A DNA stretch of 15,865 nucleotides, taken from contig JBHLMQ010000064.1 of assembly GCA_048938005.1 (NCBI GenBank), positions 1-15,865 on the forward strand, written 5' to 3'. This document shows, piece after piece, positions 1-15,188 of the stretch (position 1 is the stretch's first letter; each line of letters begins with the position of its first letter). Under the pieces are notes generated by a model. It saw only the letters and a list, made by a program, of their open reading frames with translations. It was not told where the DNA came from and did not search any database. The stretch is from Promethearchaeota archaeon. Its GTDB lineage: Archaea > Asgardarchaeota > Lokiarchaeia > Sigyniarchaeales > SOKP01. The position numbers and the translations under genes are program-made.

Positions 1-930
1 ATCGTCATCATTCGGATCTGTTAAATAGGTGGTCACTTCTTCCCCATCTGTTAGGCCATCATCATCGGAATCGTCATTGTTCGGATCTGTTAAATAGGTG
101 GTCACTTCTTCCCCATCTGTTAGACCATCATCATCGGAATCGTCATCATTTGGATCAGTACCATTGCTATATTCATCTAGGTTTGAAAGTTCATCGCCAT
201 CTGGATCGCCATCAGAATCATCAGCCAGTGGATCTAACCCATTTAATATTTCCCATCCATCAGGCATACCATCATCTTCCGAATCATCATCGTTCGGATC
301 TGTTAAATAGGTGGTCACTTCTTCCCCATCTGTTAGACCATCATCATCGGAATCATCATCGTTTGGATCTGTTAAATAGGTGGTCACTTCTTCCCCATCT
401 GTTAGGCTATCATCATCGGAATCATCATCGTTTGGATCTGTTAAATAGGTGGTCACTTCTTCCCCATCTGTTAAGCCATCATCATCGGAATCGTCATCGT
501 TCGGATCTGTTAAATAGGTGGTCACTTCTTGTCCATCTGTTAAGCCATCATCATCAGAATCGTCATCGTTTGGATCTGTTAAATAGGTGGCCACTTCTTG
601 TCCATCTGTTAAACCATCATCATCAGAATCGTCATCGTTTGGATCTGTTAAATAGGTGATCACTTCTTCCCCATCTGTTAGGCCATCATCATCGGAATCG
701 TCATCGTTCGGATCTGTTAAATAGGTGGTCACTTCTTCCCCATCTGTTAAACCATCATCATCAGAATCATCATCGTTTGGATCTGTGCCATTATTATATT
801 CCTCCAGGTTTGAAAGTCCATCGCTATCTTGATCTCCTCCTGAATCACTAATTAACGGGTCAAATCCATGTGTAATTTCCCAACCATCAGGCATACCGTC
901 ATCATCAGAATCAGAATCGTTTGGATCTGT
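1..930 (-). repeat. Coding tandem repeat: 69-bp (23-aa DPNDDDSDDDGLTDGEEVTTYLT) units punctuated by 144-bp (48-aa) units; TSP3-like DxDxDG calcium-binding repeats
   Basis: The anchor ggatc recurs at 14, 83, 152, 296, 365, 434, 503, 572, 641, 710, 779 and 923. Spacing is 69 bp except for two 144-bp intervals (152-296 and 779-923). Confidence 0.95.
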
Positions 931-3210
931 GCTATATTGATTCTCCGAGTATTGTGATAGCATATCAAAATCTATATCAATTATTTGATGGTTTCTGTGA
1001 CCAAAAAATGAATAATCTCCATATATTCCCTGCCATTCTATTCTTTTACCAGAATTACTTGTTTCTATGGTATACACTCCGTTATCATTACCAGCATCTC
1101 CACCTGTTACAACAACTTCAAGATCAGAATCGCCATTCAAATCACCAAGTGCAATCCCCACAGGAAGGGCGTCTATCTGATATATCCATGAAATAAGTCC
1201 GTTCTCACCGTTCAAAGCATAAATCTTGTTATCTTTACCTCCTATAACCACCTCCACTTTACCATCACCATCTACATCCCCTAATGATGGATCAGTATTT
1301 AGAGAATTTTCATAAGTCCATAAAACACTTCCATCTTCTCCATTTAAAGCAAATAGGGTTCCCATACCAAGTATTACTACTTCTAGATTCCCATCACCAT
1401 TTATATCACCAACTGCAGGGCTAGAATAAAAACCAAAATAAGGGCCTGCTCCTTCATAAACCCATAATATGCTCCCGTCTTCACCATCTAATACATAGAT
1501 AGTTCTATCACTGCTTCCCACCACCACTTCGAGTTTACCATCTTTATTTAAATCAGCCAGGAGGGGAGAAGAATATATAGAATCTCCTGTTTGAAAAACC
1601 CATAATAAGCTTCCATCTTCACCATTTAATGCATATACATACTGATCAAGAGACCCGACTACTGCTTCAAATTTTCCATCATTATCTATATCTCCTAAAG
1701 CTGGAGAACCCCATATTTCATCTCCTGTTTGATAAGTCCATGTTGTAGTATCAGCTTCGCAATTAAAAGAATATATATTGTGATCATCAGATCCTACAAC
1801 CGCTTCAAGATTTCCATCTCCATCTATATCTCCTAATGCTGGAATACCCCTAACAACACCTCCCACATCATATACTCTTATAAAATTTCCATCCTCAGCA
1901 TCCAATTGATAAAGTAATCCATTAATCTCCGCTATAAGAATTTCAAGCTTGCCATCATTATCCATATCTCCCAATACTGGGGATGAAAAAACCCAATCAT
2001 AGGTATAGATATCCCAAAGTGTAGTTCCATCTTCCCCATTTAAAGCAAGAATACAATAACTCCCACCTAATTTCCCAAAGACGACTTCTAACTTACCATC
2101 CATATCTATATCTGCTAATGCTGGAGAACCAACTATATCATAGAAGTATTGCGAAGTTTTCCATAATAATCTTGGGACTATTATCTTTGAGAGATCAGCA
2201 ATTGCTAATCCCGAATTATAATCTGCTATATATGCATAATCTCCACTCACATAAACACTACGTGCACTTCCAATCGTATCCTCATATACAGGAATTCCTG
2301 GATTTGTTGGGTTAGAAATGTCAATGACAGCCAACCCATAATCATAATCCGCGACATAAGCACAATCCCCACTTACATAAACTCCAGTTGCATACCCCTT
2401 TGTATCCTCATAAATTGGAGTTCCAGGATTCGTTGGGTCAGAAACATTAATGATTGCTAAACCACTAAGATCATTCGCTACATAGGCGTAGTTTCCACTC
2501 ACACGAACTTCTGTTGCATAGTCAGGAGTACTACGATACAATGGAGTTCCTGGATTCATTGGGTCGGAAACATCAATGATTGCTATTCCCGAAGTATACG
2601 TAGCTACATAAGCATACCCCCCACTCACGTATACATCCCATCCATAACCATTCGTATCTCTATATATAGGATCTCCTGGGGTTGTAGGATCAGAAACATC
2701 AATAATGGCTAAACCTGAAGTAGAAACTGCTACGTAAGCATACCCTCCGCTTACGTAGACGCCTAATGCTTGCGCATTTGTATCTTTATATACAGGATTT
2801 CCTGGGTTTGTAGGATCAGAAACATCAATAATAGCTAAACCTGAATAGGAAACCGCTATATAAGCATATCCTCCACTTACGAAAATATCCCCTGCAAATC
2901 CATTGGTATCCCTATAAATAGGAACTCCAGGGTTTATAGGATCAGAAATGTTGACGATGGCTAGTCCAGAATTTCCATCAGCAACATAGGCATAATTTCC
3001 ACTTACAAATACATCCACTGCAACCCCTGTAGTATTTTGGTAATATATAGAAGATTTTTTAAGCTCTTGTGGTATATTATTTACATCTACATGAATATTA
3101 TTAGAGAAATCAAATTTATTAATCAATAAGTTTGAGTTTAGAAGAAAAGGAAAGTTAATGATTAAAAGCCCTAATAAGAGTATTAAATATACTTTTTTCA
3201 AATTTTTCAC
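1..3210 (-). CDS. Large secreted/cell-surface repeat protein (signal peptide + LVIVD beta-propeller + FG-GAP/PQQ-like beta-propeller + TSP3-like Ca2+-binding repeats); 3' end beyond the window
   Basis: Manual minus-strand translation from GTG at 3210 (MKNLKKVYLILLLGLLIINFPFLLNS..., basic then hydrophobic N-terminus) stays open to base 1, giving 1070 codons. It contains 7 x 'VSGxYAYVA...GLAIIDVSDP' units, 8 x 'P(A/V)LGD(I/L)DxDGKLEVV' units and 'DPNDDDSDDDGLTDGEEVTTYLT' repeats. The start codon choice is inferred. Confidence 0.93.
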   Translation of the reverse strand, partial: MKNLKKVYLILLLGLLIINFPFLLNSNLLINKFDFSNNIHVDVNNIPQELKKSSIYYQNTTGVAVDVFVSGNYAYVADGNSGLAIVNISDPINPGVPIYRDTNGFAGDIFVSGGYAYIAVSYSGLAIIDVSDPTNPGNPVYKDTNAQALGVYVSGGYAYVAVSTSGLAIIDVSDPTTPGDPIYRDTNGYGWDVYVSGGYAYVATYTSGIAIIDVSDPMNPGTPLYRSTPDYATEVRVSGNYAYVANDLSGLAIINVSDPTNPGTPIYEDTKGYATGVYVSGDCAYVADYDYGLAVIDISNPTNPGIPVYEDTIGSARSVYVSGDYAYIADYNSGLAIADLSKIIVPRLLWKTSQYFYDIVGSPALADIDMDGKLEVVFGKLGGSYCILALNGEDGTTLWDIYTYDWVFSSPVLGDMDNDGKLEILIAEINGLLYQLDAEDGNFIRVYDVGGVVRGIPALGDIDGDGNLEAVVGSDDHNIYSFNCEADTTTWTYQTGDEIWGSPALGDIDNDGKFEAVVGSLDQYVYALNGEDGSLLWVFQTGDSIYSSPLLADLNKDGKLEVVVGSSDRTIYVLDGEDGSILWVYEGAGPYFGFYSSPAVGDINGDGNLEVVILGMGTLFALNGEDGSVLWTYENSLNTDPSLGDVDGDGKVEVVIGGKDNKIYALNGENGLISWIYQIDALPVGIALGDLNGDSDLEVVVTGGDAGNDNGVYTIETSNSGKRIEWQGIYGDYSFFGHRNHQIIDIDFDMLSQYSENQYSTDPNDSDSDDDGMPDGWEITHGFDPLISDSGGDQDSDGLSNLEEYNNGTDPNDDDSDDDGLTDGEEVTTYLTDPNDDDSDDDGLTDGEEVITYLTDPNDDDSDDDGLTDGQEVATYLTDPNDDDSDDDGLTDGQEVTTYLTDPNDDDSDDDGLTDGEEVTTYLTDPNDDDSDDDSLTDGEEVTTYLTDPNDDDSDDDGLTDGEEVTTYLTDPNDDDSEDDGMPDGWEILNGLDPLADDSDGDPDGDELSNLDEYSNGTDPNDDDSDDDGLTDGEEVTTYLTDPNNDDSDDDGLTDGEEVTTYLTDPNDDD
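1060..2170 (-). repeat. Eight FG-GAP-like / PQQ-like beta-propeller blades within the surface protein
   Basis: LADIDMDGKLEV, LGDMDNDGKLEI, LGDIDGDGNLEA, LGDIDNDGKFEA, LADLNKDGKLEV, VGDINGDGNLEV, LGDVDGDGKVEV and LGDLNGDSDLEV; most are followed by an ALNGEDGS(L/V)LW-type motif. Confidence 0.85.
2190..3045 (-). repeat. Seven LVIVD repeats (42-aa / 126-bp period) within the surface protein
   Basis: GNYAYVAD, GGYAYIAV, GGYAYVAV, GGYAYVAT, GNYAYVAN, GDCAYVAD and GDYAYIAD, each followed by a GLAIIDVSDP-like sequence at 126-bp spacing. Confidence 0.9.
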
Positions 3211-3383
3211 TTTTTTTTACATTATTTTTTATTAGATTTTGACAACTAGCAATTTATTCACTTAATTATTAAATCAATAAGGAATGATTTTTTACAATTT
3301 TATAAAAATGCTTATATTAGGTTGTATATAATAAAATATTGGAGGATTCAGATATCTCAAAAATGCTAAAGTAAATCCAAAAA
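3211..3383. promoter_or_regulatory. Divergent AT-rich promoter region between the surface protein and the wHTH regulator
   Basis: 173-bp head-to-head intergenic region with TATA-like boxes (e.g. tttataaa around 3298-3305). Exact promoter elements cannot be assigned. Confidence 0.45.
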
Positions 3384-4166
3384 ATGTCAACTGAAAAACA
3401 AATAACTATTATGAATCAAGCATCAATTGTTTCTAACATTAGTTTAAAGCACCCGAATGTTCAGAGAGTAATAAAAATTGCCGAAGAGATCGTTTCAGAA
3501 GATAAGATTTTATCTTTAGAAAATTTATATTATAAGGCAAAACGAAGGTTAAAAATTCCCCGTAAAGGGTTGAGGTTCATAATCCAGTATTTAGTCAATA
3601 AAAAGGTGTTGGTTGACCAATCAAAATTTACCCGACATTCAATTTTAGAACATCCTCTTAGAAAGTCAATTTATTATTTTATAAAGGATAATTTGGGTGT
3701 TCATTTATCTACTATTCGAAACTATTTCCATTCTGAAAATACGGGAACAGGGCAACTACTTTGGCATTTAGATATGCTATTAAAATTTAATTACATAAAA
3801 TCCATAAAAATGAAGAAATATTTAATATTTCTTCCCCGAGAGATTGATGATGAATCTGGGATCATCTATTTCTTGCTTAGAGATGAATTAAACTTTAGAA
3901 TTGTTCAATTATTATTAAAAAAAAAAGAATTAAAAAGATCAGATATCTATAAGAAGCTAGCAGAATCCCGTGAATTAGTATATTATCATCTAAATAATCT
4001 AATAGATGATAAGTTGATTAAAATTAAAGAAGATAAATATGTCTATATTAACCCTAAAAAAGTTTTATTTTGTGTTCCAATATATTCCATGAAGTTTTAT
4101 GAAGACACCCAAGATGCTTTGGAATTCAGGGATGGAAAAAAAATGTCTGATAAAACTCAAGAATAG
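3384..4166 (+). CDS. Winged helix-turn-helix transcriptional regulator (tandem wHTH, ArsR-like C-terminal domain)
   Basis: 260 aa, basic. The segments LEHPLRKSIYYFIKDNLGVHLSTIR...GQLLWHLDMLLKFNYIK and LRDELNFRIVQLL...RELVYYHLNNLIDDKLI match the archaeal tandem wHTH pattern. The N-terminal ~60 aa may be a third wHTH. Confidence 0.8.
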   Translation: MSTEKQITIMNQASIVSNISLKHPNVQRVIKIAEEIVSEDKILSLENLYYKAKRRLKIPRKGLRFIIQYLVNKKVLVDQSKFTRHSILEHPLRKSIYYFIKDNLGVHLSTIRNYFHSENTGTGQLLWHLDMLLKFNYIKSIKMKKYLIFLPREIDDESGIIYFLLRDELNFRIVQLLLKKKELKRSDIYKKLAESRELVYYHLNNLIDDKLIKIKEDKYVYINPKKVLFCVPIYSMKFYEDTQDALEFRDGKKMSDKTQE

Positions 4167-4171
4167 AATAA

Positions 4172-4190
4172 TTTTTTTCTTTTTTCTTTC
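4172..4190 (+). terminator. Oligo-T archaeal-type terminator after the wHTH gene
   Basis: T-rich tract (T runs interrupted by single C) starting 6 nt after the TAG stop at 4164-4166. Confidence 0.5.
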
Positions 4191-4272
4191 TATGATTTAC
4201 TGGGTGATAACCATCTCACAAGCGATAGGAATACAATGCTTTCATCCTTCATTTAAAGAAAAAGGGGGAGAT

Positions 4273-4479
4273 ATGATATTAAACAATGGTCTTTTTATTA
4301 TTCTTAATATTACTACATTTATTATCAGTTTATATCTTTTATTTGCAGTAATTTTACCTCTAGGTCCTCCATCTGAAGTTTTGATGGTCTATCTAGCATT
4401 ACCTCCATTATTTATTGGAATAGGAACCGTAACTCCATTGATATATTTTGGAATTAAAAAATTGAGTAAGATTGAATAA
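4273..4479 (+). CDS. Small two-TM-helix membrane protein (68 aa), hypothetical
   Basis: Same frame as track ORF 4099..4479, but ATG 4273 follows a purine-rich GGGGGAG motif and lies downstream of the wHTH terminator. Two hydrophobic segments are linked by GPPSE, with a basic tail. Confidence 0.6.
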   Translation: MILNNGLFIILNITTFIISLYLLFAVILPLGPPSEVLMVYLALPPLFIGIGTVTPLIYFGIKKLSKIE

Positions 4480-4494
4480 CTTACCAAAAAATAA

Positions 4495-6312
4495 TTATTT
4501 TATATAACTTCCAAATTGATCAAGTTTTCTTAATTGTTCTGAATTGAAAATAGGTCCATCTTTACAAACAGATACATCATTATTTTCACCAATACAACAT
4601 GAACCGCATAATCCTACACCACATTTCATTTTCCTTTCAAGTGATGCCTGTATTTCAATATTATTTGAATCAGCGATCTCAAGTACCCGCTTCATCATTA
4701 CTTCTGGACCGCACGTTATAATTAGGTCAATATTATTCTCTACTAATATATCTTCAATAGTATCAGTAACAAAGCATTTTTTCCCAACTGATCCATCATC
4801 TGTACTACACATCGTATTAGGAATAAGATCAATTAATCTATCACCAAATATCAATGATGCTTCATCTTTTGCGCCTATTGTGACAATCATGTTTTTCTTA
4901 TTTAATTTTAAAGGTTTAATTAGTGATGTTAGAGCAGCAATTCCCATACCACCACCAACTATAAGAATATTGGATGCATCTTCGTAATCCCAAGAATTCC
5001 CGAAAGGACCTCTAATACCAATATTATCGCCTTCATTCAGTTCAAATAATTTAGTGGTACCTTCACCTATTTTTTGTACAGTAATTTCAATAAGATTGCC
5101 ATCTATATTTGAGATAGACATTGGCAAAAAATCAATATCTGGAAGCCACAAGATCACGAACATTCCTGGTCTATATGCTCTTGCAATTCTTTCGTTCCTA
5201 ACAATGAAACTTTTAATTTCTGCGGAATGTTCTATTATAGATTCTATTTTTACTAAATCTGTTTTATATCGAGTAATATTTAAAACCATTTCCTCATTAT
5301 CTTTTGTTAAATCCTTTTGTTCTAGAATCCCCTTTTCAAGTGCTAAATCGTAAATTTCCTTTCCTCGTTCTGTTCTAACTATTAATGTCCTCCACCCCTC
5401 TTCACTCCCTATATTTCCTACGGAGATATCTGCAAATGATGCTGTATAATCAGAACATGAAAAACAAGCATTTCGAATAGCTTTATCATAAATAAAATTA
5501 AGTGGAATTTCTTTAGGAGAATTGTTAGTAATAATTTTCATTTTAAAGTTACTTTTTTCAGTGGTAATTTTAGAAATCTCATTAGAATTTATATCATATT
5601 GTTTAAAACATTCAGATAACAACTGATTATGATATGTCCCAAAGCAAAAAGTTCCAATTGACAATGTTACTAGATCAAATGCTTCAAAATCAAATCTTGG
5701 ATGATATTGCATTTTTCTAAGAGCTTGTATTTGACAAGGTGTACCAATTACAGCAATATCAGCAAATTCTTTATTTATTGCATCACCTATTAAAGAAAGA
5801 GTTGGACTTTGACTTGGTTTATATCCAACACTTTTGTATAATTCCTGTTGATTTATAGCAATTACAGGGAACGGTCTAAATTCTTCATCTTTATCAGTGA
5901 CTATAGCCGCATCAATCATTTTTGCTTCTAGAGCTATAGATAATAATGCAGTTATAGGCCCAGTTTCCATTGGGAGCTTGCCTTTAGCTTTATCAGTTAA
6001 TTTAACTGACACTATCCTAATATAATGCCCTAAAATTTTATCCTGTTTTTTACCAAATACCCATTTGTCTAACAATGATAGAGATATTTGATCTAATCCA
6101 GTTTTTGGACATAAATTATAACATAAACCGAATCCATCTCGACATGTACTCAAATCTTTACAAGATCCATCCTCAATAGGTATTTCTTTATCATAATCAA
6201 ACCTAATATTCGCACAAAATGCTCCACATGCCCCACAGTACAAACATTTACCAGTTTTAATTATTTCCGAATCTAATTCTTGCCAGCCTTTTTTAATTTT
6301 ATCAATATACAT
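4495..6312 (-). CDS. pyrK: Fusion protein: N-terminal ferredoxin + FrhB/FdhB/FpoF-type F420-binding domain joined to a C-terminal PyrK-type (dihydroorotate dehydrogenase electron transfer subunit; FAD/NAD/[2Fe-2S]) domain
   Basis: N half: CLYCGACGAFC, GLCYNLCP, VIGTPCQIQALRK, IGTFC, CFSCSDYTASFADISVG and LIVRTERG (FrhB family). C half, from about 5255: RPGMFVILW, IRGPFGN, VGGGMGIA, CGPEVMM, SLERKMKCGVGLCGSC and VCKDGPIF (PyrK/FNR family). Confidence 0.88.
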   Translation of the reverse strand: MYIDKIKKGWQELDSEIIKTGKCLYCGACGAFCANIRFDYDKEIPIEDGSCKDLSTCRDGFGLCYNLCPKTGLDQISLSLLDKWVFGKKQDKILGHYIRIVSVKLTDKAKGKLPMETGPITALLSIALEAKMIDAAIVTDKDEEFRPFPVIAINQQELYKSVGYKPSQSPTLSLIGDAINKEFADIAVIGTPCQIQALRKMQYHPRFDFEAFDLVTLSIGTFCFGTYHNQLLSECFKQYDINSNEISKITTEKSNFKMKIITNNSPKEIPLNFIYDKAIRNACFSCSDYTASFADISVGNIGSEEGWRTLIVRTERGKEIYDLALEKGILEQKDLTKDNEEMVLNITRYKTDLVKIESIIEHSAEIKSFIVRNERIARAYRPGMFVILWLPDIDFLPMSISNIDGNLIEITVQKIGEGTTKLFELNEGDNIGIRGPFGNSWDYEDASNILIVGGGMGIAALTSLIKPLKLNKKNMIVTIGAKDEASLIFGDRLIDLIPNTMCSTDDGSVGKKCFVTDTIEDILVENNIDLIITCGPEVMMKRVLEIADSNNIEIQASLERKMKCGVGLCGSCCIGENNDVSVCKDGPIFNSEQLRKLDQFGSYIK

Positions 6313-6906
6313 TTAATTTCCCTCCTGGAGTTGCTCCATGAATTCTTGAGCTTCTTTTTTTCCAAGTTCGAATGCTTCTAGATTTTTTTCCAAAGTAGAA
6401 CTAGGTACAAATTTTTTAATTGTTTGAATTGCAGATTCTTCAGAAATGATTCCAGAAAGGATTGAAAATGCCCCAAATAAGATTGAGTTACCATATACTA
6501 TGTTTCCGAATTTTTCAACAGCTAATTTCTGAACAGGAATGCTTAAAGATTTTAAGCTTTTTGCAGATTTGAACTCTCTAATAGTTGATGGATCCCATAT
6601 TAAAAAACCTGTATTATTGTCTTGCTTTAAATCACCTTTTTTGACCCCATCCGCAGATGCTTGAGATAATATGATTAAGAAATCATATGGTTTTAATGCT
6701 TTAGGATAATCTATTATTTTTACATTTTTATCTAAATCAACAACGACTTCTGCCCAACATCTACCACCCCGTGCTTCTGCTGAATATGCTTCAGTTTGAG
6801 TGGCTGCTAAATTCTCATACAGTGCACTTGCAGTAATAATCATCTTACTGAGAGTTATAACACCTTGTCCTCCAAAACCAGAGATACGTATTTCAAATCT
6901 AGCCAT
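6313..6906 (-). CDS. korC: 2-oxoacid:ferredoxin oxidoreductase gamma subunit
   Basis: EIRISGFGGQGVI, YSAEARGG, NSILFGAF and NLEAFELG motifs; follows the beta subunit. The symbol reflects family and gene order; the substrate is unproven. Confidence 0.9.
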   Translation of the reverse strand: MARFEIRISGFGGQGVITLSKMIITASALYENLAATQTEAYSAEARGGRCWAEVVVDLDKNVKIIDYPKALKPYDFLIILSQASADGVKKGDLKQDNNTGFLIWDPSTIREFKSAKSLKSLSIPVQKLAVEKFGNIVYGNSILFGAFSILSGIISEESAIQTIKKFVPSSTLEKNLEAFELGKKEAQEFMEQLQEGN

Positions 6907-6908
6907 CT

Positions 6909-7826
6909 TTACTTGCCCTCTAATGCAATATTCTGAATTTTAGCATATTGTTCTGAATATTCTGGTTTATCGGGGTCGTATCTGAATTCTCCAATAACAT
7001 ATTTATTAAATAGTTCATCATTAGTCATGAATTTGGCACGATTTATCCTTACGCAATTTCTTTTTATCCAATCTATCATGATTCCTGTATTGTCCATTAT
7101 TTCACCTTCTTCTCCCATATCTTCCGTTCCTAGACTATCTAAATTTTTTCTTCCAAAATATGTAACACAGGGAATAATTACTTCAATAACAGAAGTTCCT
7201 TTATGCCTTAATGCTTTTTTAAAATATTTCATTAAAGTTCGAGGATGGGCAACCGTAGTTCTTGCCACATAGGTTGCTCCAGCAGCAAGAGCAAGGTTCA
7301 CACCGTCACTTCTACTTTCAAACATTTTATACGGTGTTGTTGAACTAATTGCTCCATATAAAGTTGTTGGTGCGCTTTGTCCTCCAGTCATAGCATAAAT
7401 ACTATTATTAAACACTAATATGACACAATCTATGTTTCTTCGACAGATATGAATAAAATGATTTCCACCAATTCCTAAAGCATCTCCATCCCCAGAAAAT
7501 ACTATAGGTTTCATTTTAGGATTTGCCATTTTCATACCGGTTGCCATTGCTGGTGCTCTACCATGAAGTGCTAGAAATTTCTGTGAAGCGTGATGTACCA
7601 ATAATAATAATTGACTATAACAACCTATACCAATTATTACAGGATATAATTTAGGATCTAATTTTTCATCTTCAAAAACACGAGTGAATAGATGTCCTAT
7701 TATTCCATAGCCACATCCTGCACAGAATCTAGATGAATATGTGCCCAATAAATGTCCTCCCAAAGAATGCATTACGTAAGGATGCTCTAATTTTTCTTTT
7801 GGATACCTAGGTCCTAACCCTGACAT
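6909..7826 (-). CDS. korB: 2-oxoacid:ferredoxin oxidoreductase beta subunit (TPP-binding)
   Basis: FCAGCG, GIGC, LHGRAPAMATG, SGDGDALGIGGNH...NNSIYAMTGGQ and PCVT motifs; GGAGGT SD and TAATG overlap with the alpha subunit. Confidence 0.92.
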   Translation of the reverse strand: MSGLGPRYPKEKLEHPYVMHSLGGHLLGTYSSRFCAGCGYGIIGHLFTRVFEDEKLDPKLYPVIIGIGCYSQLLLLVHHASQKFLALHGRAPAMATGMKMANPKMKPIVFSGDGDALGIGGNHFIHICRRNIDCVILVFNNSIYAMTGGQSAPTTLYGAISSTTPYKMFESRSDGVNLALAAGATYVARTTVAHPRTLMKYFKKALRHKGTSVIEVIIPCVTYFGRKNLDSLGTEDMGEEGEIMDNTGIMIDWIKRNCVRINRAKFMTNDELFNKYVIGEFRYDPDKPEYSEQYAKIQNIALEGK

Positions 7827-9007
7827 TATTTGGCCACCTCCCTTATAACTTTTAAAATATCATTTGGGTGATGGAAGTCGACTACTTTCGGAATTCTTAT
7901 AATGGGAGTTTCAAGTTTAGTAACCCTTTCAACTTGTTCTGCTATAAAACCGGTATAATTTAATTCTGGTACTATGATTGCCTTAGCATCTTTGACTACA
8001 TTTCTTACTTTATCATCTGGAAAAGGCCATACTGTTATTAATCTAAATATTCCAACTTTTATCCCTTCTTTGCGAGCGACATCAACAGCTCGATAGCTCG
8101 TTCTTACTGGTAAACCATAGGAAATAATAACTATATCTGCATCATCCAACTTATATGTTTCTGTTAAAGAAATTTTATCCATATTAGACCTTATTTTCTC
8201 AAATAACGTTTCTGTATATTCTAATACCCTAGAAGTTGGAAGTCCTATTGAATTATGAGGTTGATGAAGAAACATTAATGGGCAATAATCTGTCCCTATT
8301 ATTGGAGGTTTTGGGATAATATATTCTCCAGTATTCTCATCTTTATATGAAAATTTATTTTTAAAATCTTTCGGTAATTCACGATTAATTACTCTCTTCA
8401 ATATTTCTTCACTTGATGGAATATTAACTGACTCATGAAGATGACCTAAATACGCGTCAGAAATAATAAATACAGGACAACGATAAGTTTCAGCAAAATT
8501 AAATGCAGTAATGGTTAAATCGAAAAGTTCTTGGCAATTCATCGGTGCCAAGGCAATAACTTGAAATTCTCCATTTCCAGGGAAACGTATCATCCCTAAA
8601 TCATTATGATGTGGTTCTGTGACGAATCCAGTTCCAGGCCCATTTCTCATAACATCTGCAAAAACAAAAGGGATTTCAAGATTAGCTGCCATGCTTATTG
8701 TTTCGACCATTAAAGAAAATCCAGGTCCTGAGGTGGCTGTCATGGATTTTGCTCCTACTAATGATGCTCCAATAACTGCATTAATGGATGCTAATTCATC
8801 CTCCATCTGTATACAACAACCACCTATTTCGGGTAATCGTTTAGCAAAATGTTCGATAACTTCCGTACTTGGAGTAATCGGATATCCTCCAAAAAATTTA
8901 AGACCTGCTGCAATAGCTCCTTCTGCCATAGCAACATTACCCATTAAAACATGGGTGCCCTCTGGTAAAAATTTCATACTTTTTTCTCCACTCAATCTAT
9001 TCACCAT
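7826..9007 (-). CDS. korA: 2-oxoacid:ferredoxin oxidoreductase alpha subunit
   Basis: GNVAMAEGAIAAG, GYPITPSTE, QMEDELAS, TATSGPGFSLM and RLITVWPFP motifs. Confidence 0.92.
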   Translation of the reverse strand: MVNRLSGEKSMKFLPEGTHVLMGNVAMAEGAIAAGLKFFGGYPITPSTEVIEHFAKRLPEIGGCCIQMEDELASINAVIGASLVGAKSMTATSGPGFSLMVETISMAANLEIPFVFADVMRNGPGTGFVTEPHHNDLGMIRFPGNGEFQVIALAPMNCQELFDLTITAFNFAETYRCPVFIISDAYLGHLHESVNIPSSEEILKRVINRELPKDFKNKFSYKDENTGEYIIPKPPIIGTDYCPLMFLHQPHNSIGLPTSRVLEYTETLFEKIRSNMDKISLTETYKLDDADIVIISYGLPVRTSYRAVDVARKEGIKVGIFRLITVWPFPDDKVRNVVKDAKAIIVPELNYTGFIAEQVERVTKLETPIIRIPKVVDFHHPNDILKVIREVAK

Positions 9008-9008
9008 A

Positions 9009-9284
9009 CTAAATTTTTACTTTTTCAGTCGCAATTTCTTTTTCTTCTTCTAAAACATAAATACTCCAATCAGGACAGCAATATTCACATCTACGGCACC
9101 CAGTGCAATACGCCGCTTTCCCTTCTTTTACTTTAGGGATATATGCAATTCTATAATTTAATTCATCACTCATTTCCAAAATACCTGTTGGACATATAAC
9201 TACGCAAGCCCTGCAACCACCACATCTGTCCCTATTTAGGAATAAAGAAAAGTTTTTTTCTTTATTTTCTATTAATTTCGGCAT
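9009..9284 (-). CDS. korD: 2x[4Fe-4S] ferredoxin / 2-oxoacid:ferredoxin oxidoreductase delta subunit
   Basis: CGGCRACVVICP and CTGCRRCEYCCPD motifs; 1 bp from the alpha subunit start. Confidence 0.88.
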   Translation of the reverse strand: MPKLIENKEKNFSLFLNRDRCGGCRACVVICPTGILEMSDELNYRIAYIPKVKEGKAAYCTGCRRCEYCCPDWSIYVLEEEKEIATEKVKI

Positions 9285-9314
9285 TTTATCAACTTTTAAG
9301 AAGAGTACTTAATT

Positions 9315-9325
9315 AAAAAAAAAAA
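9315..9325 (-). terminator. T11 tract, possible terminator after the MttB-family gene
   Basis: Eleven consecutive A on the + strand (T on the minus strand), about 30 nt downstream of the TGA stop at 9355-9357. Confidence 0.5.
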
Positions 9326-9354
9326 TCTTTGAATTGTTATTAATTTAGGGAAAT

Positions 9355-10782
9355 TCACTTTAAATGTTCATTTGCAATTTTATCCAATTCTTTTACGAGT
9401 TCTTCACTAATGGGTTTAATTGGCGATTTATTTAGCAATTTTGAAGCTTGCTCTTTTGCCCTCTGTCTTGCAGATTTGGATCCTGCCTCTCTCCACGAAT
9501 CACGAGTCATTCTGTCAATAATTAAACTAGGGAGGAACAATTCTTTTTTAAAATATTTCAAAGTTGAAGGATGAGATAATAATTCTTCTTTATCTCCATA
9601 ATCTTTCAGGATTTCTGACGCAAAGGGGGATCCATAATCTTCAATACCTTGGAGAAATCTCTTAACCATCCCTATAATTTCATTATCAATTATTAACTTT
9701 TCAATACTCTGCGTGGATTCAAAATCAAGCATTCCGGGCCCAGAAACCATATTAATTCCTGCTAATCCTGCTAATAATGCTCCCATTCCCGCCTCGAAAC
9801 CAGCTTGACTATCAGGAATTTTAGAATCACTTAAACTCATATAAGCATGAGTAGGTATGTTCAAAAACTTTCCTATCTCAATATCACCTAAATTTATCAT
9901 CATTGTTTCAATTGCCCCCATAGGAGTTGTTCCGTATTTCATATCAAAAACAGCAGGAGAACCACCCCATATCAATGGCGCTGCCTTTTTCGTTAATTGA
10001 ACAATTACTACTCCTGCAAGGCATTCAGCACAGTGTTGGGTAATAGATCCTATTAAAGTGATTGGAGCATTAGCGCCAGCTAACGGCATTGAAACAAATT
10101 CCGAAGGGATCATACTTTTAGCTGCATCAATTAAAGATTGAGTTGTAAGATCAGACCATTTAAGAGGGGGGCTAGGACAAGCATCAAATATGGCTAATGG
10201 CTTTCTTGCTAAATCAACTTCTGATAATCTACATGCTAAAAGGATTTTTTGCATAATCGAAAAACTTTCTTTACGAAATGTTCCAGTTACAATAGGCTTA
10301 TAACAGTTAGATAAAGCAATATATAATCTATGCCAATCTTGGGCTTTTTTTGGAACATCCTGATAAATTAAAGCTGTACTTTGAGCATCAATATATTTTA
10401 ATTGCTCAACAACCTTTGAAAATCTGATAAAATCTTTTGATAAACCCTCTCTAATTTCTCCTGTTTCCTCATCAAGTATAAAAATAGCAGCGGATCCAGG
10501 ATCAAAATTAACATTATCTTTCTTTAGTGAAATATGTTTATTACCCTCTCGATCATAAAGATTAATTTCACTTGGTACAGTTTTTAAACATTTATCAATC
10601 AAATCTGGTGGAATAAAAAAACGTGAATCCTTATTGTCTATATTATGTTGATTAAATAGTTCAATTGCCTCTTGATTCTCAATAAAGATGCCTTGAACTT
10701 CAAGAATAGATTTTGCTTCCTCTAGGATTAATTTTTTATGTTCGTCATCTAAAATTTTTATCTTTGGTCGAATAATAGGCAT
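9355..10782 (-). CDS. mttB: Trimethylamine methyltransferase (MttB) superfamily protein, non-pyrrolysine type (amine/betaine:corrinoid methyltransferase)
   Basis: 475 aa. SPPLKW, GANAPITLIGSITQHCAECLAG, DMKYGTTPMGAIE, SDSKIPDSQAGFE and GMLD...SIEKLIIDNEI are MttB-family motifs. There is no in-frame TAG; Leu (TTA 9832-9834) precedes SDSK at the Pyl-equivalent position. Confidence 0.9.
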   Translation of the reverse strand: MPIIRPKIKILDDEHKKLILEEAKSILEVQGIFIENQEAIELFNQHNIDNKDSRFFIPPDLIDKCLKTVPSEINLYDREGNKHISLKKDNVNFDPGSAAIFILDEETGEIREGLSKDFIRFSKVVEQLKYIDAQSTALIYQDVPKKAQDWHRLYIALSNCYKPIVTGTFRKESFSIMQKILLACRLSEVDLARKPLAIFDACPSPPLKWSDLTTQSLIDAAKSMIPSEFVSMPLAGANAPITLIGSITQHCAECLAGVVIVQLTKKAAPLIWGGSPAVFDMKYGTTPMGAIETMMINLGDIEIGKFLNIPTHAYMSLSDSKIPDSQAGFEAGMGALLAGLAGINMVSGPGMLDFESTQSIEKLIIDNEIIGMVKRFLQGIEDYGSPFASEILKDYGDKEELLSHPSTLKYFKKELFLPSLIIDRMTRDSWREAGSKSARQRAKEQASKLLNKSPIKPISEELVKELDKIANEHLK

Positions 10783-10809
10783 TTAGATATTCTCCCTTAT
10801 TTTATAATT

Positions 10810-11688
10810 CTAAAGAGAATCAATAATTCTTCGGATTTCTTTAATTGTTTTTGGAGATGTGCCACAACATCCCCCAACGATTTTTGCTCCTAGTTCAATC
10901 ATTTCTTGAATGTCATTAGCAAATCGCTTTATAGGTTGTTCATAATAAGTTTTATCCCCTTTAATTATAGGTTGACCTGCATTAGGTTTTACTGAAAGTG
11001 GTTTATTGGTAACTTCTACTGCATCCTTTAACAATTCAAGCATATCATTGGATCCTAATGTACAATTTGCTCCAATTACATCTACATTCTCATTATCTAA
11101 AGCTTTGATACATTTTTCCAATGAATTTCCCATTATTGTAAAGAAACCTCTTTTAGTCTTTTTATATGTAATTGAGGCAATTAAAGGTTTCTTAGAGACT
11201 TCTCGTACTGCTTTAATTGCTGTTAACATTTCTTCAAGATCCGAAATTGTTTCAATATGCCAAAGATCAACACCTTTTTCCAACAATTTTGCTTGAGTCG
11301 AGAAGCTAGAATACCATTGCTCATTAGAAGCATTTCCTATTGGTGGTCTAAATTCTCCTGTAGGCCCGATATCACCTACAATCAAGCATCTAGAAGGGCA
11401 TACCTTTTTTATATTTTTTAAAGCATTTTCTATAATCTCTTCAATTCGACTTTCAAGATTATGATGACTTAAATTCAAAGGAGTTGAGCCAAAAGTATTT
11501 GTTTGACACATATCTGAGCCAGCATCATAATATGATTTATGAATTTCAGAAATTATTTCTGGTTGTTCGATATTTAAGATATCTGGAATTTTCCCAGATG
11601 TTACCTTTCTTTTAATTAATTCAGTTCCAAATCCTCCATCGAAGAGTATGATCTTGGAATCATCATTTAACCAATCTTGAAATGACAT
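10810..11688 (-). CDS. Stand-alone homocysteine S-methyltransferase (MetH N-terminal / BHMT-type Zn-binding domain)
   Basis: LFDGGFGTEL, IHKSYYDAGSD, TNTFG, GDIGPTG, IETISDLEE, IGANC, KPNAGQP and IVGGCCGTSP motifs (three Zn-ligand Cys). At 292 aa it has no pterin- or B12-binding domain. Confidence 0.92.
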   Translation of the reverse strand: MSFQDWLNDDSKIILFDGGFGTELIKRKVTSGKIPDILNIEQPEIISEIHKSYYDAGSDMCQTNTFGSTPLNLSHHNLESRIEEIIENALKNIKKVCPSRCLIVGDIGPTGEFRPPIGNASNEQWYSSFSTQAKLLEKGVDLWHIETISDLEEMLTAIKAVREVSKKPLIASITYKKTKRGFFTIMGNSLEKCIKALDNENVDVIGANCTLGSNDMLELLKDAVEVTNKPLSVKPNAGQPIIKGDKTYYEQPIKRFANDIQEMIELGAKIVGGCCGTSPKTIKEIRRIIDSL

Positions 11689-11720
11689 ATTTTATTTAAT
11701 CACTCCAAAAACTATAAAAA

Positions 11721-12368
11721 TTACTTATTTATAAGAGATTTAACTAATTTGACAGCTTCAATAGCATTTTCAGCAAATCCATCAGCATTACACTCTTCTA
11801 CCCATTTGCTTGTTACAGGAGCACCTCCGAGAATGACCTTGAACCTGTCAGCCATTTTTTTTTCTTTTAAATGATCAATAACTTTTTTCTGTCCAATCAT
11901 GGTAGTTGTTAAAAGAGCAGAAACACCAATTATGTTAGCATCTTTTTCTATAGCTTTTGCGATAATTGTTTCAACAGGAACATCCGCACCTAAATCATAT
12001 ACTTCATAACCATAAGCTCTTAACATTGTAGCTACAATAGTTTTTCCGATCGAATGAATATCTCCCTCTATTGTTGCCATTACAACGATACCACGGGAAA
12101 TTTTGTTCAATGTATCTTGAAGATGTGGAATTAGAAGATCTAAACAATTTTGCATTATTTGTGCTCCACGCATTAACTCGGGTAAGAAATATTCACCATC
12201 TTCCCATAATTCTCCAACTTTCCGAATTCCAGCGGCAAATCCGTTTTCAATAACATCAAGTAAATTCATACTTTCCTTTATGGCTTTATTTGCATATTCA
12301 AGGGCTTTTTCTTCGTCTAAATTTACGATAGCTGATGATATCTCTTCATAAACTTCTTCTTTTGACAC
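11721..12368 (-). CDS. Methyltransferase cognate corrinoid protein (MttC/MtbC/MetH cap + B12-binding domain)
   Basis: VGELWEDGEYFLPELM cap motif, EGDIHSIGK (DxHxxG base-off His-on), SALLTTTM and GGAPV; GTG start preceded by GGAG. Confidence 0.93.
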   Translation of the reverse strand: MSKEEVYEEISSAIVNLDEEKALEYANKAIKESMNLLDVIENGFAAGIRKVGELWEDGEYFLPELMRGAQIMQNCLDLLIPHLQDTLNKISRGIVVMATIEGDIHSIGKTIVATMLRAYGYEVYDLGADVPVETIIAKAIEKDANIIGVSALLTTTMIGQKKVIDHLKEKKMADRFKVILGGAPVTSKWVEECNADGFAENAIEAVKLVKSLINK

Positions 12369-12515
12369 TTTGATTTCTCCAGAAAATTAGTTAAATCATA
12401 ATTAAAAGTAAAAATATTACTTATTTACATATATGAAATTAATAAAACCTTTTTGTTAAATCGAAAAAAATATTTGTTAATGTTCTTTTTTAAATTCAGT
12501 TCTAAATAAACAAAA
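12369..12515. promoter_or_regulatory. Divergent AT-rich promoter region (methyltransferase cluster / hisS)
   Basis: 147-bp head-to-head intergenic region, very AT-rich, with several TATA-like stretches; no structured riboswitch is evident. Confidence 0.45.
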
Positions 12516-13892
12516 TTGAGTGATTGGATGTCTAAAAAGTTTTCTAAAGAACCACTTAGAGGAATGGATGACTATTACCCAGCTGATTTGCGCGAGGTTA
12601 ATTGGATAATTGAAAACATTAAAGATGTTGCAGAAAGATATGGTTATGAAGAATATGAAACTCCACAAATAGAGCCTGTTGAAATTTTTGCTGCTAAATC
12701 TTCTGATGAATTGGTTAATGAACAATCATTTATAATGGAAAAAAAAGAAGGAGAAAGACTTATTTTAATCCCAGAACTTACTCCCTCTTTAGCTCGAATG
12801 GTTGCAAAGAAAAGCCAAGAGCTCAAGAAACCTATTCGGTGGTTTTCTATACCAACATGTTTCAGATATGAAAGACCTCAGAAGGGTCGCCGAAGGGCTT
12901 TCATTCAACCTAATATAGATATTTTAGGTGAAGAAAGTCTTTATGCGGATCTTGAGATCTTCAACATAATTGTAGATATTTTTACTCAATTTGGAGCTAC
13001 TTCAGAGCAATTTCAAATTTATTATAATAGCAGACGATTTATGGACTCAGTATGTAAGTATATACTTGAAATAAGAGAAGATATGTCGCCTTTAGTTTTC
13101 AAAATATTAGATAAATCTGATAAAATGGATGATACTGAATTTGAAAAACTTGTAATTGAGACATTTCAAGATGAAGTTATAATTCAAGGCATATTAAAAT
13201 TGAAAGATGCTAAAGGTGTTAGTGAGTTATTAAAAAAATTTGATAATATACCAGAAGGATTTTATGAGTCTAAAGGTTATCTCGAATTGATAAATTTTGA
13301 ACAATTAATAAAAGAAGTAGATATTTCTAATTACTGTACATTTTCTTCAGGAACAGTCAGGGGACTTGATTATTATACTGGAATAATTTATGAAGTATTT
13401 GATACTGGAAAAGAAAATATAAGAAGTATTTTTGGAGGAGGTCGCTATGATGACCTTCTATCAATATTTTCAGATGAAAAAATAACTGGTACAGGATTTG
13501 GTATGGGAGTTTATATGTTTTCCTTGTTTTTAAAAACTTACAATTTAATTCCAGAGGAAATTAAAGAGAAAGACTATAGTGATACAATATACATTGCATC
13601 TATAAATGAAGATATGTCAACATATGCATTTGAACTTGCTAGAACTATCCGGGACGAAGATTTTCCATGTATTATTGATTATAGATTTAAAAACCTAAAA
13701 AATCAATTAAAAAAAGCCAGTGATTTAGGAATTATTATCGTTTTAATTTTAGGACCAGAAGAATTAGCAGAAAGAAAAGTAACAATTAGGAATATGATCT
13801 CTGAAGAACAAAAAACTATTTTTTTCGATGAAGTAATAGATGAGATCTACCAAATTATTGATGAATTTAGCGATAATAAATTTGACCAATAA
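12516..13892 (+). CDS. hisS: Histidine--tRNA ligase
   Basis: RGMDDY, PELTPSLAR, FRYERPQKGR, VRGLDYYTG, GGGRYDDL and GFGMG motifs plus a C-terminal anticodon-binding domain. The start is TTG 12516 or ATG 12528. Confidence 0.96.
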   Translation: MSDWMSKKFSKEPLRGMDDYYPADLREVNWIIENIKDVAERYGYEEYETPQIEPVEIFAAKSSDELVNEQSFIMEKKEGERLILIPELTPSLARMVAKKSQELKKPIRWFSIPTCFRYERPQKGRRRAFIQPNIDILGEESLYADLEIFNIIVDIFTQFGATSEQFQIYYNSRRFMDSVCKYILEIREDMSPLVFKILDKSDKMDDTEFEKLVIETFQDEVIIQGILKLKDAKGVSELLKKFDNIPEGFYESKGYLELINFEQLIKEVDISNYCTFSSGTVRGLDYYTGIIYEVFDTGKENIRSIFGGGRYDDLLSIFSDEKITGTGFGMGVYMFSLFLKTYNLIPEEIKEKDYSDTIYIASINEDMSTYAFELARTIRDEDFPCIIDYRFKNLKNQLKKASDLGIIIVLILGPEELAERKVTIRNMISEEQKTIFFDEVIDEIYQIIDEFSDNKFDQ

Positions 13893-14003
13893 ATATTTTA
13901 TTTTATGATATCAGATATTGGATTTAAAATACCCGAAGAGATTAAAAGGAATCCAGAATCGAAACTGGGTCTCTTCTTAAATTAATCGAGGTTTATAATT
14001 AAT

Positions 14004-14972
14004 ATGAATAATTGGTTAAAAAAGTTGAAATATGATCCTTTATCCAGTTTATCTAGTACAAAAAATAAAGCAATTCAATATTTCGTCAAGCGAGATCTAT
14101 TAGAAGAGGAGGTTGAGCCAATCGAAACGATTTGGGAAGAATTATACGCACAAAAAATAATACGGAAGCAATTAACCGATGGATCATGGAAACCAACCGG
14201 AAAATCTAGTCAATATAACGAGAATAGGCACTTATGGGCGGTTTTTAAGAGTCTGAGAGAGTTAATACCTAAGTATGGCTTAAATAAAAAGCACGAATGT
14301 GCGCAAAAAGCCGCTGAGTTTATTTTTAGATGTCAAACAGAGGAAGGTGATATTAGAGGTATTTACGCGAATCAATATATGCCTAATTATATGGGTGCTT
14401 TGATGGAACTCTTAAATAAAGCAGAATTCCACGACGATCCAAGAATGGAGAAGGGATTTCAATGGTTTCTCTCGATGAGACACATGGATGGAGGTTGGGG
14501 ATTGCCTATGTTAACAAAATCCCTTCCTTGGCAAGAGGTTTACACCTTACCCAAACCAATTTCCCCTGATAAAACAAAACCTTCCTCGCACTGGTTAACA
14601 GGAATGGTGCTGCGAGCGTTTGCCACTCATCCTAAATACAAAAATTGTAAAGAGGCAAAAGAGGCGGGAACTCTTCTAATTTCCCGATTTTTTCAAAGAG
14701 ATAAATATAGTTCACGACAAGATAAAAGTTATTGGGTCAAATTTTACATTCCATTTTTTTGGACCGACATTTTATCGGCTTTGGATACAGTTTCAAAGCT
14801 AGGATTTTCTAAAGACGAGCCTAAGATTAAAGAAGGGCTTCAATATTTTATAGACGAGCAACAATCAGATGGTCGTTGGAGTTTGCACTTTATGATGATG
14901 AAGAACGATCCTGATAACTCTTATTGGTTCGATTTGGAAGTCTGCCGGGTTTTTAAGAGGTTTTATAATTAA
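14004..14972 (+). CDS. Prenyltransferase/squalene-cyclase (QW) repeat alpha/alpha-barrel protein, function unknown
   Basis: QW-like motifs KQLTDGSW, CQTEEGDI, MRHMDGGW and EQQSDGRW; GAGGT SD upstream; 322 aa (one barrel); no DxDD cyclase motif in the expected context. Confidence 0.72.
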   Translation: MNNWLKKLKYDPLSSLSSTKNKAIQYFVKRDLLEEEVEPIETIWEELYAQKIIRKQLTDGSWKPTGKSSQYNENRHLWAVFKSLRELIPKYGLNKKHECAQKAAEFIFRCQTEEGDIRGIYANQYMPNYMGALMELLNKAEFHDDPRMEKGFQWFLSMRHMDGGWGLPMLTKSLPWQEVYTLPKPISPDKTKPSSHWLTGMVLRAFATHPKYKNCKEAKEAGTLLISRFFQRDKYSSRQDKSYWVKFYIPFFWTDILSALDTVSKLGFSKDEPKIKEGLQYFIDEQQSDGRWSLHFMMMKNDPDNSYWFDLEVCRVFKRFYN

Positions 14973-15057
14973 TAATTATTAATTAAAAAAATTGATTTCA
15001 ATAAGAAGGCATTCAAATCGCTAATTTTTTTAGAAACTACCTCCTATTTATATTCAG

Positions 15058-15122: not shown

Positions 15123-15188
15123 TCATTGTTAAAAATTATTAAGTGCATTATCAAGATTATTTAAAATTAACAAAAATCTTTACTAATT

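Follow-up and report, generated by a model that had tools for sequence, protein, structure and literature searches.

An FrhB-PyrK fusion as a candidate F420/NAD(P) electron module of an Asgard 2-oxoacid oxidoreductase

What role could be played by a protein that joins an F420-reductase-like domain of the FrhB family to a PyrK-like domain, when its gene closes an operon for a 2-oxoacid oxidoreductase? The question is raised by contig JBHLMQ010000064.1 of a Promethearchaeota archaeon, analysed here from position 1 to 15,865 (the whole of this stretch is called the window below). Five tightly packed open reading frames (ORFs), all on the minus strand and reading from 9284 to 4495, encode the delta, alpha, beta and gamma subunits of the oxidoreductase and then the FrhB-PyrK fusion. 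Judging from sequence and gene order, we hypothesize that the five genes form one functional unit and that the fusion would be the oxidoreductase's dedicated electron module toward coenzyme F420 and nicotinamide nucleotides (NAD(P)); we give this reading about an even chance of being correct.

The operon begins with delta (9009-9284), which encodes 91 amino acids (aa), followed by alpha (7826-9007; 393 aa with POR_N and PFOR_II domains), beta (6909-7826; 305 aa with a thiamine pyrophosphate (TPP)-binding domain), gamma (6313-6906; 197 aa with a POR domain) and, as fifth and last cistron, the fusion (4495-6312; 605 aa). Its G+C content is about 31%, in a window that is itself low in G+C. An earlier, sequence-only reading had claimed this gene order together with very short junctions, and reading the DNA bears out both. 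The TAG of delta is separated from the ATG of alpha by 1 nucleotide (nt), alpha and beta have one base in common (TAATG), 2 nt lie between the TAA of beta and the ATG of gamma, and the TAA of gamma abuts the ATG of the fusion with 0 nt between them (TAAATG). The GGAGGG that the same reading had placed inside gamma is also there, as a Shine-Dalgarno-like motif at 6320-6325 (minus strand) within the 3' end of the gene, 7 nt before the fusion ATG. The delta-alpha gap is counted from the first ATG of the alpha ORF, which is assumed to be the start; if translation began instead at the in-frame ATG of codon 11 (nt 8977), the gap would be 31 nt.

Is this arrangement peculiar to one genome? When species-representative genomes were scanned, 244 stretches matched; the best 80 were retained as 76 loci and analysed by tblastn with the window proteins and by ORF tracing. 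All 76 are Asgard or unnamed-archaeon metagenome-assembled genomes (MAGs): by record label, 54 are Promethearchaeota or Promethearchaeia, 12 "uncultured archaeon", four Hodarchaeota, two Thorarchaeota, two Hermodarchaeota, one Odinarchaeota and one Sigynarchaeum. By their labels, the Asgard lineages that conserve the operon itself are Loki-, Thor-, Hermod-, Hod-, Odin- and Sigynarchaeota. Sixty-six loci include the N-terminus of the fusion with 620 nt or more of upstream sequence, and in every one the gamma stop lies between -2 and +13 nt from the fusion start, 37 of them with a 1-nt gap. When the gamma alignment is required to end no more than 60 nt from the fusion, the count is 64 of 66; in the other two, L067 and L076, the alignments end about 80 nt short, while the gamma ORFs reach 1 and 9 nt before the fusion, and the gene order is kept despite a fusion identity of 42%. 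Every locus with an upstream gamma has one 63-93% identical to the window gamma. For the whole block, 53 loci extend far enough upstream (3,050 nt or more) to be evaluated, and 49 of these have a contiguous delta-alpha-beta-gamma block before the fusion; in two more, L002 and L029, the four genes are all present and an insertion separates beta from gamma.

The junctions are conserved along with the gene order. In related loci the 1-nt overlap of alpha and beta recurs in 44 of 53, the beta-gamma gap measures 2-4 nt in 48 of 54, and the gamma-fusion gap is 0-10 nt in all 50. Since these junction lengths recur across related loci, the operon arrangement exceeds chance. Shine-Dalgarno-like GGAG or GAGG motifs precede beta in 56 of 57 loci and gamma in 44 of 59; of 58 orthologous loci, 45 have one between -4 and -18 relative to the fusion start. 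Before delta such a motif is found in just two of 34 loci, and the window delta also lacks one. A first, leaderless cistron without a Shine-Dalgarno motif, followed by internal genes that mostly have one, is the usual archaeal pattern. Because the motif is missing at delta yet mostly present at the internal genes, delta probably opens a transcript of its own as a leaderless first cistron. Some 30 nt ahead of the delta ATG, 3' of an mttB-like gene upstream, the DNA reads as a TATA-like A/T-rich stretch, TTTTTTAATTAA (9320-9309), overlapped by an 11-T run (9325-9315); this region (9309-9325, minus strand) may mark a terminator/promoter boundary between the mttB-like gene and delta. At the other end, the 15 nt between the fusion stop and a convergent gene contain a T6 run immediately after the stop (4486-4491, minus strand), which may be an archaeal terminator.

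In a search of 5.8 billion clustered proteins, the 120 best matches comprise the window's own protein (P0001) and 119 clusters, 591-624 aa long and 71-92% identical over the full length; the fusion is as conserved in sequence as alpha and beta. Among the matches listed at 50%-identity representatives, the only full-length clusters are P0121 (70% identical) and P0123 (43%), accompanied by fragments, and the other relatives there cover one half of the fusion only, the nearest stand-alone FrhB-like proteins (P0126, P0127 and others) among them. Both flavin domains are present in every full-length homologue among the matches listed. Longer fused forms (1,060-3,025 aa) were looked for and not found, which is weak evidence. 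Short stand-alone matches more than 69% identical are fragments of the fusion at contig ends, and true stand-alone PyrK proteins, some of them from other Asgard lineages, are 38-49% identical.

Nothing else in the neighbourhood is as constant. We clustered 898 ORFs from the 76 loci and counted families present in at least five loci; 27 families recur at this level, 22 of them outside the operon, and in these locus neighbourhoods no dihydroorotate dehydrogenase is found among the 27. The upstream flanks vary between LUD/CCG lactate-utilisation-like genes, a set of MttB-corrinoid-methyltransferase genes, aconitase-family subunits, a galactarate-dehydratase-like gene and aldehyde:ferredoxin oxidoreductase, and the downstream flanks between EamA, ABC-transporter and Rce1-like genes. 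This oxidoreductase is the sole constant partner of the fusion. The sequence-only reading turned on whether homologues of the fusion would sit apart from oxidoreductase genes, for example beside pyrD; gamma is adjacent in all evaluable loci, the complete block is contiguous in nearly all, and pyrD is not among the families that recur in at least five of the 76 loci. What that reading had proposed, an F420/NAD-linked 2-oxoacid oxidoreductase with a dedicated partner, is therefore strongly supported by synteny as regards the functional link, and its F420 and NAD(P) parts come from homology only.

The identities of all five proteins are backed by Pfam and NCBIfam searches. The four genes before the fusion clearly read as a TPP-dependent, four-subunit 2-oxoacid oxidoreductase of the OorDABC/KorDABG type. 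Alpha (POR_N and PFOR_II) and gamma (POR) score above all the Pfam cut-offs concerned. Alpha comes nearest of the four subunits to an NCBIfam cut-off (PRK08659, 406.4 bits against 411), and its solved relatives are 1yd7_A (E = 2.5e-78) and 8ys5_A (E = 3.5e-69). Beta matches Pfam TPP_enzyme_C and carries the GDGD...NN motif; Gly112-Asp113-Gly114, Asn140-Asn141 and Cys35, Cys38, Cys69 and Cys220 are invariant in 26 sequences. The four cysteines fit one [4Fe-4S] cluster, and their spacing agrees, with an alignment offset, with that of the [4Fe-4S] ligands of 5b46_B. The best NCBIfam match of beta is the 2-oxoglutarate ferredoxin oxidoreductase beta model (191.7 bits; cut-off 364), and besides 5b46_B its solved relatives include 8ys5_C (E = 3.9e-44). 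Gamma has solved relatives in 3on3_A, 8ys5_B and 3g2e_A (OorC). Delta belongs to the Fer4 families by Pfam and contains two CxxCxxCxxxCP motifs, sufficient for two [4Fe-4S] clusters, with all eight cysteines invariant in 26 sequences; its best NCBIfam match is OorD (62.8 bits against 93), and its best solved relative is 8ys5_D of a 2-oxoglutarate:acceptor oxidoreductase (E = 9.3e-14). Delta is presumed to be the electron exit of the enzyme. All four subunits fall under the NCBIfam equivalog cut-offs, and the top named models and structures are 2-oxoglutarate enzymes. The oxidoreductase is accordingly most like these, and 2-oxoglutarate is a candidate substrate by resemblance.

The fusion consists of three parts. 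Residues 1-88 (6049-6312) form a ferredoxin-like domain with eight invariant cysteines (Cys23, 26, 29, 33, 51, 57, 64 and 68, in two alignments), enough for two [4Fe-4S] clusters; it aligns with the ferredoxin domain, residues 1-83, of 8riu_B and, by analogy with that protein, could act as a docking and electron-bridge domain. Residues 90-345 (5278-6045) are an FrhB-like F420-reductase domain, with Pfam matches to FrhB_FdhB_N (44.8 bits against a cut-off of 22, E = 1.4e-11) and FrhB_FdhB_C (126.6 bits against 23.3, E = 9.8e-37). Cys193, 223, 283 and 286, again without variation in the two alignments, fit a [4Fe-4S] cluster next to the flavin, so that this domain is predicted to have an F420-reductase fold with flavin adenine dinucleotide (FAD) and one [4Fe-4S]. 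Residues 350-605 (4498-5265) are a PyrK/NfnA-like domain with a FAD barrel, an NAD(P) Rossmann fold containing GGGMGIA, and [2Fe-2S] ligands at Cys564, 569, 572 and 583; DHODB_Fe-S_bind is matched at E = 6.3e-12, and residues 352-603 score 261.4 bits against the PyrK equivalog NF000796 (cut-off 224). Both alignments show Cys569, 572 and 583 as invariant; Cys564 is so in one and nearly so in the other. Counted over the whole protein, 20 cysteines are conserved, 19 of them invariant in both alignments and Cys564 in one, from which a set of three [4Fe-4S] and one [2Fe-2S] can be read. Searches with Pfam and NCBIfam find no NfnB/GltD-type domain in the fusion; the FrhB-like domain stands in its stead.

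Structural relatives point to two different kinds of electron carrier. For the N-terminal half (residues 12-362) the nearest solved relative is 8riu_B, both by sequence (E = 4.5e-53, 183.7 bits) and by fold (E = 1.1e-24, target TM-score 0.68), and 8rja_E also matches well (sequence E = 1.8e-43; fold E = 7.3e-23). The C-terminal half resembles the PyrK protein 5ksw_B (sequence E = 9.5e-27; target TM-score 0.84), the NfnI small subunit 5jca_S (E = 2e-30; 0.82), the NfnA protein 4ylf_A (E = 1.8e-32; 0.80) and the sulfhydrogenase I gamma subunit 9nf0_C (0.79), which has the same sequence as 9nez_C (E = 4e-22). Going by the molecule names of these matches, it is a PyrK-type module that faces NAD(P) in dihydroorotate dehydrogenase B, in Nfn and in sulfhydrogenase. 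The fold comparisons used an AlphaFold2 model built on a 127-row alignment (mean predicted local distance difference test score (pLDDT) 80.5, predicted template-modelling score 0.67), in which most of the PyrK half is very confident with pLDDT above 90.

Taken together, these observations allow us to sketch a route for the electrons. They would pass from TPP to the [4Fe-4S] cluster of beta, then through the two [4Fe-4S] clusters of delta to the two in the N-terminal ferredoxin domain of the fusion, and on to the [4Fe-4S] of the FrhB domain and its FAD, which would exchange hydride with F420. A side branch would lead through the [2Fe-2S] of the PyrK domain to the second FAD, which would exchange hydride with NAD(P). 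Oxidation of a 2-oxoacid with coenzyme A (CoA) would in this way be coupled to reduction of F420, NAD(P)+ or both, with no release of reduced ferredoxin, and the F420H2 could supply the Mtd and Mer steps of the Wood-Ljungdahl pathway in fermenting Asgard archaea. Several parts of this scheme are conjectural. Physical binding of the fusion to the oxidoreductase is suggested by analogy with related complexes. F420 is a plausible substrate given that the nearest solved relatives of residues 12-362 are proven F420-reductase add-on subunits, and NAD(P) given the homology to PyrK, NfnA and sulfhydrogenase gamma. The direction of electron flow is likewise something we infer. The metabolic setting is compatible with F420: all F420 biosynthesis genes are reported from Loki-, Heimdall- and Helarchaeota, and Mtd, Mer and Fno from Asgard archaea (PMC8498797). 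The source of F420H2 in fermenting archaea with a Wood-Ljungdahl pathway is treated as open in PMC10667645, where fermentation itself is said to yield no F420H2.

Several findings weigh against this proposal. Two of the 53 loci evaluable for the whole block, L018 and L034, have no alpha and delta by the fusion, and there the fusion and gamma stay. The cluster-binding N-terminal half of the structural model is just moderately confident. The FrhB half scores 159.4 bits against TIGR03289 (FrhB; cut-off 331.5), 186 against PRK09325 (cut-off 269), 100.1 against NF040616 (FpoF; cut-off 475) and 97 against NF006808 (cut-off 444); it lies below every curated F420-enzyme cut-off and is therefore a member of none of the named orthologue groups in NCBIfam (FrhB, FpoF, FqoF). 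A member of the FrhB family that does not use F420 exists, HCAR (5dqr), and is related to the fusion at E = 2.7e-12 and 49 bits. The conserved QDGG-like stretch of F420 enzymes reads ETGP in the fusion. As to the two aberrant loci themselves, L018 (1-3815) is also without beta and has an N-terminally truncated gamma, and unrelated large ORFs take the place of the missing genes in L018 and in L034 (3000-7400); they could be rearrangements, second copies or chimeric assemblies.

How else might the fusion be explained? Its database name makes it the PyrK of dihydroorotate dehydrogenase B. Named clusters among the 120 best matches are Asgard MAG proteins called "dihydroorotate dehydrogenase electron transfer subunit" (P0011-P0109), apparently because the C-terminal 250 residues pass the NF000796 cut-off. 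That score (261 against 224 bits over residues 352-603), the stand-alone PyrK proteins that are 38-49% identical and a pyrF gene 9 kb away in the window, with another in L037, would fit such a role. However, none of the 22 non-operon families recurring in at least five of the 76 loci is a dihydroorotate dehydrogenase, the gene invariably closes the oxidoreductase operon, and the additional F420-reductase module of 350 residues would have no role in dihydroorotate dehydrogenase. Because of the operon context the database name is probably wrong, and a true PyrK function seems to us highly improbable. A different possibility is that the 2-oxoacid oxidoreductase depends on NAD(P)+, with the FrhB-like domain serving as a mere FAD and Fe-S relay and F420 taking no part. 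NCBIfam models of NADH-dependent phenylglyoxylate dehydrogenase, which shares the scaffold, weakly match alpha, beta and gamma; the 2-oxoglutarate:NADP+ oxidoreductase of Azoarcus evansii is reportedly an NAD(P)-linked relative; and the missed F420-enzyme cut-offs and the existence of family members such as 5dqr speak on the same side. Yet the nearest characterised relatives of the FrhB half all use F420 (183.7 bits for 8riu_B against 49 for the non-F420 5dqr), and in sulfhydrogenase (9nf0_C) a PyrK module alone is enough for NAD(P) output, so that we regard an NAD(P)-only enzyme as quite unlikely.

Two further readings retain F420 and differ in what the fusion does with it. In one, the five genes are co-regulated and their products do not bind, the fusion acting in solution as a ferredoxin:F420/NAD(P) oxidoreductase to re-oxidise the free ferredoxin that this and other oxidoreductases produce. 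Synteny and translational coupling speak for co-expression and not for contact, soluble ferredoxin:F420 oxidoreductases of the FqoF/FpoF type have been proposed in other archaea (PMC10667645), and the two loci described above retain the fusion and gamma in the absence of alpha and delta. Against it, the fusion is linked to a single orthologue group of oxidoreductases, a linkage of a strictness not obviously needed by a general ferredoxin oxidase, and the homologous zeta subunit anchors to its enzyme through the N-terminal ferredoxin domain (PMC11493965). We consider a free-standing role possible, though we lean away from it. The other reading draws on Nfn: the FAD of the FrhB domain would be a branching flavin between the low-potential [4Fe-4S] chain and the [2Fe-2S]/FAD path to NAD(H), and the enzyme would confurcate or bifurcate electrons. 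The five proteins would then be an F420-dependent counterpart of Nfn built on a 2-oxoacid oxidoreductase, merging its low-potential electrons with those of NADH into two F420H2 (2-oxoacid + CoA + NADH + 2 F420 -> acyl-CoA + CO2 + NAD+ + 2 F420H2); in reverse, F420H2, with NAD+ as co-acceptor, would drive reductive carboxylation. The cofactor set copies that of NfnAB, in that the PyrK-like half matches NfnA (4ylf_A, 5jca_S) and the FrhB half with the ferredoxin domain offers a FAD and a [4Fe-4S] chain as NfnB does. Plain output would need one flavin domain, and both are kept in every full-length homologue among the matches listed. The potential of F420, -340 mV (PMC11493965, PMC10667645), is near that of NADP. 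By our own arithmetic, from textbook values of -500 and -320 mV and the -340 mV of F420, the reaction would be downhill by about 70 mV over four electrons. Two acceptor sites may, on the other hand, just mean dual specificity, and it counts further against confurcation that FrhB-type flavins are not known to bifurcate. We think confurcation unlikely, and an assignment of the five proteins as an Nfn counterpart is to be taken as equally tentative.

The proposal of a dedicated F420/NAD(P) module, if true, would add a third class to the enzymes for which attachment of an F420 reductase to a normally ferredoxin-using enzyme has recently been shown, and in this case another module, directed at NAD(P), comes with it. 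Models of eukaryote origin hinge on how Asgard archaea dispose of electrons in the fermentation of amino acids and organic acids, and the Asgard Wood-Ljungdahl pathway needs F420H2; an operon that could supply it might explain the balance of redox carriers in these relatives of eukaryotes. Even apart from mechanism, what is likely a systematic mis-annotation as a subunit for pyrimidine synthesis would distort metabolic reconstructions. Were confurcation to prove correct, glutamate passing through glutamate dehydrogenase and this enzyme would give exactly the two F420H2 used by Mtd and Mer. Across Asgard archaea the enzyme would then be what has been missing to connect the fermentation of amino acids with the Wood-Ljungdahl pathway as electron sink, and it would be the first case of flavin-based bifurcation at an FrhB-type flavin.

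Some other features of the window and of the sampled loci deserve mention. Directly upstream of the operon, three genes on the same strand (9355-12368, minus) encode an MtgC/MtbC-like corrinoid protein, a protein with an S-methyltransferase domain and a methyltransferase of the MttB superfamily; an MttB homologue lies upstream of the operon in 14 of the 76 loci. That of the window is an intact ORF of 475 aa. Because it contains no in-frame stop, it is a non-pyrrolysine member, and the set is probably a methyl-transfer system of the quaternary-amine or betaine type. Farther out are a 322-aa protein with weak squalene-hopene-cyclase-like repeats (14004-14972, plus) and then pyrF (15189-15863, plus); in L037 pyrF is also near the operon, on the opposite strand and with hisS in between. 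Facing the 3' end of the fusion is a convergent ORF of 126 aa (within 3384-4479, plus) that has hydrophobic stretches and no family match, and relatives of it stand beside the operon in about 19 loci. It overlaps by 68 nt with the gene of a helix-turn-helix protein in the same interval and on the same strand, which has an HVO_0163-like N-terminal domain. The stretch 1-3210 (minus), with a G+C content of about 0.38-0.41 that is above the rest of the window, encodes a protein of more than 1,070 aa that runs off the window; its N-terminus is signal-like, and it contains LVIVD and FG-GAP/beta-propeller repeats as well as many successive acidic repeats of the form TDPNDDDSDDDGLTDGEEV.

In three of the other loci gamma carries frame-breaking, hairpin-forming inserts of about 26-31 nt (L029:7490-7525, L027:798-833, L002:7375-7410 and 7505-7535). 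Those of L027 and L029 and, with another sequence, one of L002 interrupt the same codon, after TQTEAYS; the second insert of L002 follows GFGGQ. When the 31-nt inserts of L002, L027 and L029 were tested as bulge-helix-bulge introns, they folded no better than shuffled sequences (z = -1.24, -0.04 and 0.73). Mini-introns, tiny mobile elements and assembly artefacts are all conceivable explanations of the inserts. Because L027 (labelled Odinarchaeota) and L029 (labelled Hodarchaeota) are 94.5% identical over 5.3 kb across different lineage labels, at least one of their labels or bins is doubtful.

Which known systems does the operon resemble, and where does it depart from them? Its first four products correspond to the 2-oxoglutarate:acceptor oxidoreductase of the OorDABC/KorDABG type (8YS5/8YS6), in which all four chains have their best or second-best solved relative and with which they share cofactor motifs. 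The Asgard operon differs in adding a fifth gene; that enzyme is not known to have a fifth gene product. The PyrK of dihydroorotate dehydrogenase B (1EP3, 5KSW) has in common with the C-terminal half its fold, its cysteine ligands and its NCBIfam model, whereas the Asgard domain is fused, lies in another operon and is never beside pyrD in the loci sampled. In NfnAB (4YLF, 5JCA), too, a PyrK-like small subunit with FAD and [2Fe-2S] is combined with a flavin/[4Fe-4S] module, which handles a hydride carrier of about -320 to -340 mV. In the Asgard protein, however, the NfnB/GltD-type subunit is exchanged for an FrhB-type domain and both parts are fused, and the low-potential partner would be delta of the oxidoreductase, where Nfn uses free ferredoxin.

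The closest counterparts of the N-terminal half are found in Ca. Ethanoperedens thermophilum, where 8RIU chain B is the zeta subunit of the CO dehydrogenase component (ACDS) and 8RJA chain E is FwdI of formylmethanofuran dehydrogenase (Lemaire, Wegener, Wagner 2024, PMC11493965). Zeta comprises a ferredoxin domain (1-83, two [4Fe-4S]), an F420-reductase domain (84-349, [4Fe-4S] and FAD) and a short dimerising tail; its N-terminal domain anchors to CO dehydrogenase, and the subunit links the distal cluster of the enzyme to the FAD (PMC11493965). Crystal structures and assays are reported there for both purified complexes, which reduce F420 and reduce ferredoxin eight-fold more slowly. Zeta and FwdI, the top matches of the N-terminal half in sequence and fold, share with the fusion the order of ferredoxin domain and F420-reductase domain, a place in the operon of the partner enzyme, and a partner that normally uses ferredoxin. 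They differ in that the partner is CO dehydrogenase or formylmethanofuran dehydrogenase and not a 2-oxoacid oxidoreductase, and in that a short C-terminal dimerisation tail (350-370) stands where the fusion has a whole PyrK-like FAD/NAD/[2Fe-2S] domain; the hosts of the fusion are Asgard archaea, and its activity and its binding to a partner are predictions.

A 2-oxoacid oxidoreductase as partner also has a precedent. In ANME-1 archaea (anaerobic methanotrophs), an FrhB paralogue (FrhB6) is clustered with pyruvate:ferredoxin oxidoreductase, and a dedicated F420-reducing system has been proposed (Chadwick et al. 2022, PMC9012536). Both cases have an FrhB-family gene in a conserved cluster with a 2-oxoacid oxidoreductase; the ANME-1 cluster, from Syntrophoarchaeales, contains a pyruvate enzyme, and the part of that paper available to us does not speak of a fusion to PyrK. 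In the literature we found no description of an FrhB-PyrK fusion, within a scope that did not extend to the supplementary FrhB trees and gene-context figures of PMC9012536 and PMC11493965, which may bear on novelty. The available text of an archaeal fusion survey (PMC11237513) does not mention such a fusion, and PMC6646929 does not mention F420, frh or oxoacid. Because it was noted in ANME-1 (PMC9012536), the tie between an FrhB module and a 2-oxoacid oxidoreductase is not new as an idea. The novelty here lies chiefly in the PyrK module being fused on, and also in the Asgard lineage and in a partner of the OorDABC type.

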